From: an uncultured bacterium
GTDB taxonomy: Bacteria; Babelota; Babeliae; Babelales; Babelaceae
Direction: 5' to 3'
DNA length: 64,000 nt
NCBI GenBank assembly: GCA_963713855.1
Contig: OY970209.1
Span: 768,001-832,000 of the forward strand
Part shown: positions 15,503 through 43,458 of the stretch, piece by piece
How positions within the stretch are numbered: the stretch's first letter is position 1
Layout of the letters: each line of letters starts with the position of its first letter
Position numbers and translations under genes: made by a program
Notes under the pieces: generated by a model
Told to the model about the DNA's origin: nothing
The model's database searches: none
Seen by the model: the letters and a program-made list of their open reading frames with translations, nothing else

Positions 15503-15846
15503 GACGCACCGTAGACTGTAAGCCGGATTCTGTGCTGCTTTCAGGGCAGCGGCAACCATTAATCTAGGCGATATACCCGTGTGTTAGCAGAACGAGCAAC
15601 TTCCACACTGCTTTATCTTGCTCCCGATGGGGTTTTTCCTCTGCTTCAATTACTTGAAGCAGCCGTGTGCTCTTACCACACGTTTTCACCCTTACTAGCG
15701 GTAAAGCTAGCGGTTATTTTCTGTGACACTATCCGTAGCTCTAGGCCCCCTGGGTTTACCCCAGGCATCGTGCTCGTTAGGAGTCCGGACTTTCCTCAAA
15801 ATGCCCTCGAAAAGTGCATTCCGCGATTGCCCGTCTACTGTACGCC
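15503..15846 (-). ncRNA. rnpB: RNase P RNA
   Basis: Minus strand contains GAGGAAAGTCCGGACTCC, AGTGTCACAGAAAA, AAGGGTGAAA..GGTAAGAGC and ACAGAATCCGGCTTA; ends pair as P1 (GTAGAC/GTCTAC). Confidence 0.96.
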
Positions 15847-39939: not shown

Positions 39940-40869
39940 TCAAGCTTTTTTCTCTCTAGGCAAAACTGAATTAAGAAGGTAGTAGCCATCTTTGTTACGC
40001 CTTAGCGCGCTTGGCTCTTCGATACGCTCTAAAAGATAGGGGATTTTTTTAAAAAAACGCGGGAAGGTAAAACTGGTATGTCCAACAGACCTCTTTCCAC
40101 ATTTGATTTCTACTTCAACTATATGATCGCCTGGAGCTGCAAATACTCGTTGTGAAAAGAACTTTGATGGAGAGCATCCCATTTCACTTGCGCTATAAAG
40201 ACCCTGCGGATCCAATATCTGAATAAGGTCTTTCGAGCCAAAAAGGTGATAGATTTTTTTGAATGCATTTTTATGAGCATAGTCTTGCGTGGCCTCTTGT
40301 ATGGGGCAACAGAGCAAAATGAGCCTGTCTACCAAAGGTTTTTGTACTTGATCCTTTGGAATAAAACTACCCATACCTAAAGCTACATTACCTCCGTGGC
40401 TTACGGTAATGATGGTTAGCGGTGTATTTTTATAAGTCGGATTTTGACGAAGTGCTTTGAGAAGTTCGTAAAGCTGTGCAGATGCTTGATGTCTTGTCGT
40501 AAAGCTTAGCTTGCCGCTCCATCCAAAAAGGTAGATATTGTCGTAGGGAAATTGTTTTGGATCGCTACAACTTAAGCTTTGAGCACAACGTGCTTTCAAG
40601 TAAAAGCTTGAGACATCCGCTGCTTTATGTAAACCCGGAGGAGTAAAAACATGGTACCTCAATAAAGGGACCGTAGCTAAAAGAAGCGGTGGGAGCCTTG
40701 TGCCATGAATAATGATGGTAATCGGCTTTGTAGGATCGGGCGCGAAGAATAACGTTTCCTGGCGAGGCTTTTTGACATGATAGCGGTGTTTCATTTTTTG
40801 TGGCACGCAACCACCTAGGAATGTCACGATTATGAGTATACAACGGGTTCTGGCTGAAAATGTGCGCAT
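39940..40869 (-). CDS. Putative alpha/beta-hydrolase lipoprotein
   Basis: FLGGC lipobox-like, IIIHGT, FGWSGKLS, TVSHGG nucleophile elbow; ATG 40869 preferred. Confidence 0.7.
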   Translation of the reverse strand: MRTFSARTRCILIIVTFLGGCVPQKMKHRYHVKKPRQETLFFAPDPTKPITIIIHGTRLPPLLLATVPLLRYHVFTPPGLHKAADVSSFYLKARCAQSLSCSDPKQFPYDNIYLFGWSGKLSFTTRHQASAQLYELLKALRQNPTYKNTPLTIITVSHGGNVALGMGSFIPKDQVQKPLVDRLILLCCPIQEATQDYAHKNAFKKIYHLFGSKDLIQILDPQGLYSASEMGCSPSKFFSQRVFAAPGDHIVEVEIKCGKRSVGHTSFTFPRFFKKIPYLLERIEEPSALRRNKDGYYLLNSVLPREKKA

Positions 40870-41009
40870 ATGTGTACCATGAAATTTATCTAGGTATTTT
40901 TTTATACACTTATATAATTGCGCTTTTTTTACAAAAAAACAAGGTTTAGGTTTAGTATTTGGCCATTTTAGTAGTGTCGCTAAATAGTAAGCCAAAGAGA
41001 AATAGGCGA

Positions 41010-41264
41010 CTACGCGGCTAGCGGCAGGACATCGTCCTGCACCTGTTGCTTGTTATGTGTGTTACATACTTATTGTGTATGAGATAGACCGGAAAATCCG
41101 GTCTATCTCATTAGTCATATTTACCAGAAAGGGAACTCCTTTCTGGTAAATTAAACTTACATAAAAAGTTTAAGCAGGGTGTGGGTCAAGGGTCATAAAG
41201 CCTGAGTCCAGGCTTATGAGCCCTTTCATAGAGTCAATACTATGACTCTTATGATGCCGCGTAG
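41010..41264. ncRNA. Unassigned multi-stem structured element (candidate ncRNA)
   Basis: 9-bp closing helix enclosing at least six hairpins, including perfect 15-bp and 14-bp stems; no ORF of 60 aa or more. Confidence 0.55.
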
Positions 41265-41320
41265 GCGTATACTTCCCTCATTTTTATTTCAGGACAGCAC
41301 CTAGCATTTTTTAAAACGAC

Positions 41321-41689
41321 TTACTCCCCGTACGAAAGAAGGATTTCTTTAAGGCGCTTTAGTTGTTTTTTGAGCATGCTTATTTGATTATGCAAACCTT
41401 GCTCAGGCACAGGCTCCTTTTGGATAGAAGATTGTCCTTCTATAGTTGGGGTCTTTTTAAACACACGTGTTCCAAGGTGTTCTTTTGCACCTGCGATAGT
41501 ATATTTCTTATCGTAGAGTAGTTCCTTGATGAGCAAAAATTTATTCATCTCGTAAGATGTATAATAACGCTGGCCGCCTTCCGAACGGTGAGGCCGAATG
41601 CCAAATTGCTTTTCCCAAAACCTGACGACAAAACTTTCAACACCAAGCTCATGGGCTATTTCACCTATTCTAAAAGTTTTACGCGCCAT
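41321..41689 (-). CDS. MerR-family transcriptional regulator
   Basis: FRIGEIA..LGVESFVVRFWEKQF.IRP.RSEGGQRYY, YTIAGAK; AAAGGAG RBS before ATG 41689. Confidence 0.9.
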   Translation of the reverse strand: MARKTFRIGEIAHELGVESFVVRFWEKQFGIRPHRSEGGQRYYTSYEMNKFLLIKELLYDKKYTIAGAKEHLGTRVFKKTPTIEGQSSIQKEPVPEQGLHNQISMLKKQLKRLKEILLSYGE

Positions 41690-41943
41690 CTTCACGACAA
41701 CTCCTTTTTTCCTTGATTGTATATTTTTATAGCGTTTCTTTTGATTCAAGACAAGAGTCAATTCACATTTGCCCCAAGTTGATTAAATCGAATTAGTGGG
41801 GTAAACTAACACTAATACTCATAAAAGTGTATAGATGTCCGCCTTTTAACAGCAGCTGATACTATCTTCTATTACGCAGTATTACAGGTGCATGTACTCT
41901 TTAAGAATTTGCTATTTTTACTACCCTAGAAAGGCACTGCCGA

Positions 41944-43458
41944 ATGAAGTTTAAAGATTTGATTATTCCTTTAGCTTTGTCTCTTATTACCGTATGGGCC
42001 ATCCAATTTTTCTTTATCAAAGATGGGGACAAGAGTGATTCACAGCCTCGTCCTGGTCAAAGTTTTGTAGCTCCAACGCAGCAAGAAATGACAAAGCCGC
42101 TTCAAACTACTTTTGCTTTTACGCCTGAAGGGCATAAAGGCATACTTACTCAAGTGGATACCGAGTATGGGGTGGCTACTTTCTCAGAAGCAGGAGCTGT
42201 GCTTGATGAGCTGAGTTTTAAGCGCATTTTGAGTGGAAAAGAACGGGTGCTTACGCCTATTGGCCCTTCTTTAAAATACCCTGCATTTTCTCTCGCTTTT
42301 GGCCCTGTAACGCCCTCAGAATATACGCTTGTTCATCGTGATGATACGAATGAAACTATCCGTTTAAAGTATGAAGCGCAATCACCTCAAGGAACAATTA
42401 GCAAAGAATTTGTAGTGCATCGTACGCTACCTAAGATTGATGTACTGATTAGTATTGATCCCCATGGCCAGGAAGTGCAGCCCCGTCTTTTTATTCCTGC
42501 ACCTTCAGTTTCTGAGGCTGATGTAGATTATCCTCCTAAAGGTCTTGTGTATACAGATCGCCAGCGTCTACAAAAGCAAAAGATTCAGCAACTGACGAAT
42601 CAATTCTGGTTTGCACCTGCGCTTTTTGGTGCTGAAGATCGCTATTTTATTAATGCACTTGTGTCCGATCCTGACAATTTCACGCGAAGAGGTTATTATA
42701 CAGCCGATCAACCTATTGCATTCGTTCTTGAAGGGCCTACTATAAAGCAAGCTCAAACGTGGAATCTTTCATTTTACCTTGGTCCTAAAGATGCCCATAG
42801 CATGGATGCGGTTGATAAGCGTTTAAACGCGGCCCTTGATTATGGTTGGCTATCGCCGCTTGTTAAAGTGATGCTTACTGCTTTAAAATTCCTTTATAAG
42901 TACGTTAATAATTATGGCTGGGCGATCATTCTTTTAACTCTTATTATACGCCTTTTACTGCTGCCTATAACATTAAAAGGCTCAAGCCCAAAACTACAAG
43001 AAAGGCAAAAAGAGTATCAACGCAAAATGCAATATATTGAGCAGAAATTTAAGAATGATCCTGATGCACTTACACGTGAGCGGTTGGAGCTGACTCGTAA
43101 GTATGGTCTACCTGATATGCTTATTCGATTGCCACAGCTTTTGCAGATACCTATTTTGCTTGGACTTAACCGATTGCTATCAAGCTCTGTAGAGCTCTAT
43201 CAGGCTCCTTTTGTTGGTTGGATAACTGATCTATCGGCGCGAGATCCTTACTATATTCTTCCGATCTTGGCTGGTGCTGGTCTTCTTATACAAGCTATGG
43301 TTGATTCTGATATTCGTAAAGGTGTTACAATGCTTCTTGTAGCAGCTTTGATTGTAGCTTTTACGGCTCATTTATCAGCCGGTTTGACGCTTTATTTGTG
43401 TGCTAATGCTTGGCTTAGCTTAGCGCAGTCCTACCTGCAAAAGGTTTTTAAAGTATGA
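41944..43458 (+). CDS. yidC: Membrane protein insertase YidC
   Basis: N-terminal TM, periplasmic domain, LDYGW, NYGWAIILLT, QIP, WITDLSARDPYYILP. Confidence 0.93.
   Translation: MKFKDLIIPLALSLITVWAIQFFFIKDGDKSDSQPRPGQSFVAPTQQEMTKPLQTTFAFTPEGHKGILTQVDTEYGVATFSEAGAVLDELSFKRILSGKERVLTPIGPSLKYPAFSLAFGPVTPSEYTLVHRDDTNETIRLKYEAQSPQGTISKEFVVHRTLPKIDVLISIDPHGQEVQPRLFIPAPSVSEADVDYPPKGLVYTDRQRLQKQKIQQLTNQFWFAPALFGAEDRYFINALVSDPDNFTRRGYYTADQPIAFVLEGPTIKQAQTWNLSFYLGPKDAHSMDAVDKRLNAALDYGWLSPLVKVMLTALKFLYKYVNNYGWAIILLTLIIRLLLLPITLKGSSPKLQERQKEYQRKMQYIEQKFKNDPDALTRERLELTRKYGLPDMLIRLPQLLQIPILLGLNRLLSSSVELYQAPFVGWITDLSARDPYYILPILAGAGLLIQAMVDSDIRKGVTMLLVAALIVAFTAHLSAGLTLYLCANAWLSLAQSYLQKVFKV

Follow-up and report, generated by a model that had tools for sequence, protein, structure and literature searches.

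The structured DNA between a merR-family gene and a hydrolase-like gene in the analyzed window (the whole stretch of 64,000 nucleotides) forms the core of a non-coding repeat of 331 bp at 40971-41301. With a probability of roughly 0.7, judged from sequence comparison, this repeat is a now-immobile MITE in which an IS5/IS427-type insertion sequence (IS) has lost its transposase and holds, between its two termini, captured "head + hairpin" repeats arranged as an inverted pair. The original prediction had described a single structure of ~255 nt at this position. The fold stands, but it is not unique, because the host genome (1.52 Mb, a single contig, 91% complete) carries 21 copies, and the real element is larger, extending to a TA dinucleotide on either side. 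The features of the window copy and its neighbors are as follows.

39940..40869, minus strand: downstream neighbor gene whose product is likely exported and resembles a hydrolase only in a motif; its probable start is at 40869
40969..40970, no strand: TA, left copy of a putative 2-bp target duplication, from the sequence and the YTAG at element ends
40971..41006, minus strand: outer end A, a decayed IS5/IS427-type right end, from the match of the end and of the encoded C terminus to an IS in a same-genus genome (G001)
41007..41023, plus strand: left "head," a mini-hairpin of 4 bp whose middle base varies; it is one of the two arms of the inner inverted repeat enclosing the core
41024..41043, plus strand: left end hairpin followed by ACC; head and hairpin together form the widespread repeat unit
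41044..41078, plus strand: T-rich linker, 9% divergence among copies
41079..41111, no strand: hairpin H2, a perfect 15-bp stem whose loop occurs in both orientations among copies
41119..41151, no strand: hairpin H3, a perfect 14-bp stem whose loop flips among copies
41152..41187, plus strand: A-rich linker with the poorly conserved TAAACTT stem; it runs into what is left of the right head + hairpin unit
41188..41225, no strand: optional hairpin module R1, closed in 12 of the 21 copies
41226..41254, no strand: optional hairpin module R2; of the 21 copies, 9 have it at the right end and 2 at the left
41256..41267, minus strand: right head, the other arm of the inner inverted repeat
41268..41301, minus strand: outer end B, a decayed IS5/IS427-type left end, from a profile match to the IS end in G001 (E = 1e-3 over that genome)
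41302..41303, no strand: TA, right copy of the putative target duplication, from the sequence
41321..41761, minus strand: merR-family neighbor gene outside the element (MerR_1, E = 1.6e-17)

Every stem named in the original prediction was found where it had been placed. The pairs 41010-41018/41256-41264 and 41024-41030/41034-41040, the 15-bp and 14-bp stems of H2 and H3, and TAAACTT/AAGTTTA are perfect reverse complements, and the stems at 41188-41225 and 41226-41254 are present with a 1-nt bulge in each. Among copies, the left head diverges by only 2.5%, and the adjacent end hairpin has a loop insert of ~62 nt in four of them. The predicted folding energy of the plus strand as RNA was -128.5 kcal/mol (z = -12.5); the minus strand as RNA (z = -12.2) and the plus strand as DNA (z = -14.4) bore out the expectation that the region folds on either strand, and in each case 0 of 200 shuffles folded as well as the real sequence. 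The merR assignment of one neighbor was likewise upheld. The gene on the other side exists, but its description as a hydrolase depends on an SHGG motif that we take to be hydrolase-like; there was no Pfam match at 1e-3, and the sole hit was DUF7379 at E = 0.21. The TTG start listed for this gene at 40995 falls within end A and is likely false, the ATG at 40869 being the probable start.

A BLAST search of the host genome recovered 21 dispersed loci with 81 to 100% identity, one of them truncated. The cores range from 213 to 313 bp (including one truncated copy), and the longest stop-free stretch is 47 codons. By crude gene calls, no copy lies within a long open reading frame (ORF), and two overlap short, probably spurious ones. 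In every copy, a hairpin core lies between inverted "heads" of 12 to 13 bp, followed by two different outer ends, A and B. The dispersed copies, the IS5/IS427-type ends, and the TA flanks support the alternative in the original prediction of a non-autonomous mobile element or structured single-stranded DNA (ssDNA), to which the present analysis adds the outer IS ends, the number of copies, and the two orientations of the core described below. Profiles of the A and B ends gave no convincing match in the host genome beyond these loci (best stray, E = 1.6); thus, the genome contains neither an empty A-B scar nor an autonomous copy. YTAG was present at the expected distance at 25/38 ends, compared with a background of 5.9%. 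The window copy has TA on both sides, a putative target duplication. The genes flanking 19 insertion sites were sought in G001; they are adjacent there for three sites, and the head motif is absent from all three. The merR gene of the window copy had no match in G001. At one locus orthologous to a host copy (G001:C2 ∼703.7 to 704.1k, corresponding to host 405.8k), the sequence is also palindromic but different, and it lacks the head motif. Divergence from the majority sequence was 24 to 26% in the distal terminal inverted repeats (TIRs), 8 to 10% in the core linkers, and 1 to 6% in the stems and heads, which suggests that the element interior has been homogenized or self-corrected. As a separate observation, 16 of the 21 copies lie less than 400 kb from the predicted origin (P = 0.047).

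The outer ends connect the element to the IS5 family. Among 260 other genomes of the phylum, only G001 matched the terminal repeat pattern exactly; with two mismatches allowed, matches across the same genomes were at the control level. The G001 match is the start of an 809-bp element that has TA flanks and two ORFs (DUF4096 and DDE_Tnp_1). The IS427 group is described as 832 to 865 bp long, with two ORFs and mostly 2-bp direct repeats (PMC3281130; members include IS1248 and ISPaes1), so the G001 relative resembles that group while being slightly short. End A matches the right end of this IS, and the minus strand at 41006-40980 encodes PISLWLTI-stop, similar to the C terminus of the G001 transposase (SILLWLKN-stop). 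End B matches the left end over ∼25 bp; because it differs past that point, the G001 IS is a relative rather than the parent. Unlike IS427 members, the host element has no transposase, and no IS5/IS427-type transposase was found in the 91% complete host genome by tblastn at E ≤ 1 or with the PF13340 profile. Since no transposase was found and the ends are ∼25% decayed, the element is likely an immobile MITE, and the family is likely no longer mobile. Metagenome scans returned 0 matches for end A and one weak locus for the G001 transposase.

The core occurs in two orientations relative to the outer ends. Its left end faces A in 13 copies (A-L) and B in 8 (B-L). With the origin and terminus placed from GC skew only (skew minimum at 395.6 kb), 19 of 21 cores are oriented with the replichore (P = 2e-4), one of these 19 lying 0.5 kb from the skew maximum, whereas the ends are so oriented in 13 of 21 (P = 0.38). 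Only 53% of host genes are on the leading strand. Neighboring genes were rejected as the cause of core orientation, as the strand of the flanking genes agrees in just 13 and 9 of the 21 copies. Replichore bias is reported for IS200/IS605 elements and is small for most IS5 subgroups (PMC3971601), so the bias belongs to the core and not to the IS5 ends. Core-like elements in G001 showed a weak bias (21/31, P = 0.07; 20/31 by local skew, P = 0.15), and single head + hairpin units in five distant genomes showed none (48/89 neighbors on the same strand, P = 0.53). None of the top 25 KOPS-like skewed 8-mers occurs in the window core.

Several features of the copies suggest rearrangement at the DNA level. 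The hairpin loops occur as reverse complements of one another, and module R2 has been duplicated to the opposite, left end in its two left-end copies. Two copies 306 kb apart, at 1197k (B-L) and 1503k (A-L), have identical middles (151/151 bases); in 190 pairwise comparisons of middle sequences, the next-best pair had 9 differences and the median was 21. The identical pair could be an assembly artefact. Taken together, the flipped loops, the copied hairpin, and the shared 151-bp middle point to DNA-level inversion and gene conversion, as far as sequence comparison can indicate.

We propose that the composite would have been carried into YTAR sites, in either orientation at random, by an IS5 transposase that was later lost. 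The core may then have been reshaped as DNA, with template switching or recombination at the inverted heads and hairpins producing flips of loops and of whole cores, and with gene conversion between copies contributing. If one core orientation were favored relative to the replication fork, copies that landed the opposite way would have been flipped or overwritten. Any effect of the element on RNA, such as stopping read-through or stabilizing transcripts, would be secondary.

A version of the MITE model that dispenses with post-insertion flipping has perhaps a modest chance of being correct. Two master isomers, A-L and B-L, would both have spread, and fork-opposed cores would have been lost by deletion or selection. 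This accounts equally well for the alignment of 19/21 cores with the fork, and it is in keeping with the weak clustering of B ends by isomer (P = 0.044) and with the lack of A-A or B-B hybrid ends among the copies. The tree of copies is nearly a star, with strong support for 0/17 branches, so that each isomer may still have had a single origin. Core sequences, in contrast, did not cluster by isomer (permutation P = 0.49; seven changes on a poorly resolved tree). Weighing against two masters are also the identical middle shared across isomers and the fact that the same copies show inversions at the scale of loops and copying from one end to the other. No linkage was detected between A, B, and core variants (Mantel P = 0.35 to 0.94).

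The core itself belongs to a second repeat family, being an inverted pair of the head + hairpin repeat. Approximately 31 core-like elements were counted in G001, outside the last 12.8 kb of contig C1; they have the same two core ends, other inner hairpins, and no IS5 ends. The right ends of many carry short tandem (ATTCR)n tails of variable length outside the head. At ∼692.3k, 701.3k, and 733.7k of G001:C2, a larger subfamily of head-bounded elements (400 to 500 bp) contains extra hairpins; a hammerhead candidate in these, a hammerhead-like CTGATGAG word without the following GAAA, was rejected by eye. The head pattern is present in 5/41 genomes of the bacterial family including the host, that is, in 4/40 others, where it occurs without IS ends, and head-bounded elements were found in G008, G063, and G064. 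Across one genome per species, 75/142 head matches among those listed continue into the same hairpin (with some loci overlapping), and the named records include Clostridia, deltaproteobacteria, Planctomycetota, Chloroflexaceae, and Acidiferrales. Five deltaproteobacterial metagenome-assembled genomes each have 10 to 49 copies of the head and hairpin start, mostly as single units, with 0 matches to reversed-pattern controls.

The search for a mobilizer of this unit covered the 41 family genomes, in which IS5 DUF4096 was found in 12, Y1 in 12, reverse transcriptase (RT) in 7, and GIY-YIG in 40, the last mostly as a long UvrC-like frame. None of IS5, Y1, RT, or small GIY-YIG genes tracked the five head-bearing genomes. 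There was no Y1 transposase in the host genome or G063, and six inspected Y1 loci of G001 and G003 lacked the head. Many family relatives have up to approximately nine short stand-alone GIY-YIG genes, while in the host, G063, and G064 the long UvrC-like gene is the only one; 0 of 30 GIY-YIG loci checked carried the head, and the published SRM motif was absent from them. In other phyla, ORFs beside the unit (Pfam results for 98 of 130 ORF references) were housekeeping genes, with no transposase among them. Viral contigs gave 0 matches and phages none; one plasmid match (E = 0.8) was attributed to chance.

A broader possibility, which we advance tentatively and think more apt to be wrong than right, is that the core is a member of an undescribed, multiphylum group of head + hairpin signals that work as ssDNA and are moved by an unknown mobilizer, and that it acts here as a self-orienting cassette within IS5 ends, flipping at its own heads during replication, without a recombinase, until it faces the fork. 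If so, selfish DNA would record, and perhaps use, replication polarity.

The host may instead have kept the copies as bidirectional transcription stops, mRNA-stabilizing ends, or replication-linked ssDNA signals, which we consider doubtful. By crude gene calls, 10/21 copies lie between convergent genes, compared with 19% of gaps (P = 0.003), and 5/21, including the window copy, lie between co-directional genes, compared with 62%; the stems are also better conserved than the linkers. Purifying selection against insertions would, however, also deplete copies within operons, and stem conservation is accounted for by the self-correction of palindromes. The absence of the element from 3/3 comparable orthologous sites and the lack of a terminator-like site in 40800-42000 likewise disfavor retention for host use.

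It is less likely still that the core itself is what moves, as a REPIN-like ssDNA element that some unknown mobilizer inserted independently, in fork orientation, into older IS5 scars. The core-like pairs without IS ends in G001, the head-bounded elements in three further genomes, and the far lower decay of the core than of the ends would fit such an order of events, as would a fork bias typical of ssDNA transposons (IS200/IS605; PMC3971601). The host genome, on the other hand, has no empty A-B scar and no core lacking outer ends, and neither the candidate mobilizers of the family genomes, with Y1 missing from the host and G063, nor the 98 ORFs scanned next to the unit in other phyla supplied an enzyme that accompanies it.

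The original prediction also raised the possibility of a novel non-coding RNA (ncRNA), and comparison among copies does not support it. Its statement that no familiar RNA signature is present held: Rfam gave 14 matches for 40800-41500 up to E = 10, all below the gathering score, and nothing at 14 related loci, and ARAGORN found no tRNA or tmRNA in the window. Its view of the stems as mostly Watson-Crick and strand symmetric also holds across copies and favors its own ssDNA or mobile-element alternative. Among 587 ungapped cells in H2 and H3, 564 were Watson-Crick, 4 were G-T, 6 were A-C, and 13 were other mismatches. H3 has more than one Watson-Crick pair type at 7/14 pairs, and double changes that preserve pairing occur at 7/14 pairs in H3 and 2/15 in H2. 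Self-correction of palindromes yields both stem conservation and pairing-preserving double changes. Stems so nearly pure in Watson-Crick pairing speak against a dedicated RNA. The strand-specific covariation with G-U tolerance that such an RNA would display was not seen in the main stems. The helix of the proposed second junction is moderately kept across copies only (71 Watson-Crick and 15 G-T of 103 cells) and is alone in leaning to G-T, with 15 G-T and 3 A-C cells on the plus strand. The TAAACTT/AAGTTTA stem, although perfect in the window copy, is poorly kept (97/142 ungapped cells Watson-Crick). The plus strand folds better in 16/20 cores, and shuffles of the window copy show the same lead, which stems from composition. 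An independently transcribed, multicopy novel ncRNA is therefore very improbable: the folding z-scores of about -12, the double changes, the junction helix, and a fork co-orientation also expected of transcribed units would suit it, but the two strands fold alike, the loops invert freely, the modules are optional, 40800-42000 contains no sigma-70-type site, no Rfam family matches, and the element is missing from all three syntenic sites that could be compared in G001.

The preferred reading, a MITE with a captured core, was compared with known systems. Like bacterial MITEs of the Correia (CREE) type, the element is small, multicopy, and without an ORF, with terminal repeats resembling those of an intact IS, TA flanks, and a strong predicted fold. 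It differs in that its length slightly exceeds the 30 to 300 bp quoted with the MITE definition in PMC4133298, its ends are its least conserved part, and its core is a second repeat family that is fork polarized and occurs in two orientations. With REP doublets, REPINs, and BIMEs, as represented in PMC3116915 and PMC3733652, it shares an intergenic, multicopy distribution, a structured spacer flanked by an inverted pair of short palindromes, the occurrence of heads in tandem in relatives, and enrichment between convergent genes; REP dimers inside larger palindromes are also reported in the latter source. Unlike those repeats, it has no terminal GTAG/CGTC tag abutting a stem (its GTAG is in the head loop on one strand, with no stem after it), its arms are asymmetric, IS5 ends lie outside them, and the host genome has no RAYT/Y1 gene. 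End hairpins and replichore-biased orientation recall IS200/IS605 elements (PMC3971601), whereas the putative TA duplication and TIRs are of the DDE type, the host has no Y1 transposase, and the head bears no relation to the IS200 ends found in G001. The NTS/SRM repeats of Ssn nucleases, as described in PMC11893778, are similar as dispersed ssDNA hairpin repeats of host-associated bacteria; the SRM pattern published there had 0 matches in the 21 cores, the host has no small GIY-YIG gene, and identity with this system was rejected because neither the SRM consensus nor a flanked ssn gene accompanies the cores. In sum, the element lacks the defining features of REP/RAYT and SRM repeats and of any Rfam family. 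Having the other testable features of a MITE and a putative target duplication, it is likely a fossil of MITE-like kind whose ends are of the IS427 type and whose core resembles a REPIN.

In the literature searched (mostly open-access papers, without supplements), there was no account of this element family and nothing on such repeats in its phylum, and the head + hairpin motif had no match in a relevant paper. The nested build and the fork-polarized, two-way core set the element apart from plain MITEs. With random ends and polarized cores in the same 21 insertions, the family lends itself to a clean test, set up by nature, of whether inversion at short inverted repeats depends on the fork, and the analysis removes a false novel ncRNA candidate and draws attention to head + hairpin as a widespread, apparently undescribed repeat unit.

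Other repeats were observed elsewhere in the window. At the gathering score, the only Rfam match in the whole window is the RNase P RNA gene (15503-15842). Just past it, at 15.9 to 20.7 kb, are three direct copies of a stretch of several hundred bases, spaced ∼1.26 and 3.2 kb apart. Three genes, at 17.7 to 19.7, 45.5 to 46.7, and 55.6 to 57.6 kb, consist of 48-residue (144-bp) repeats that appear beta-propeller-like by eye.
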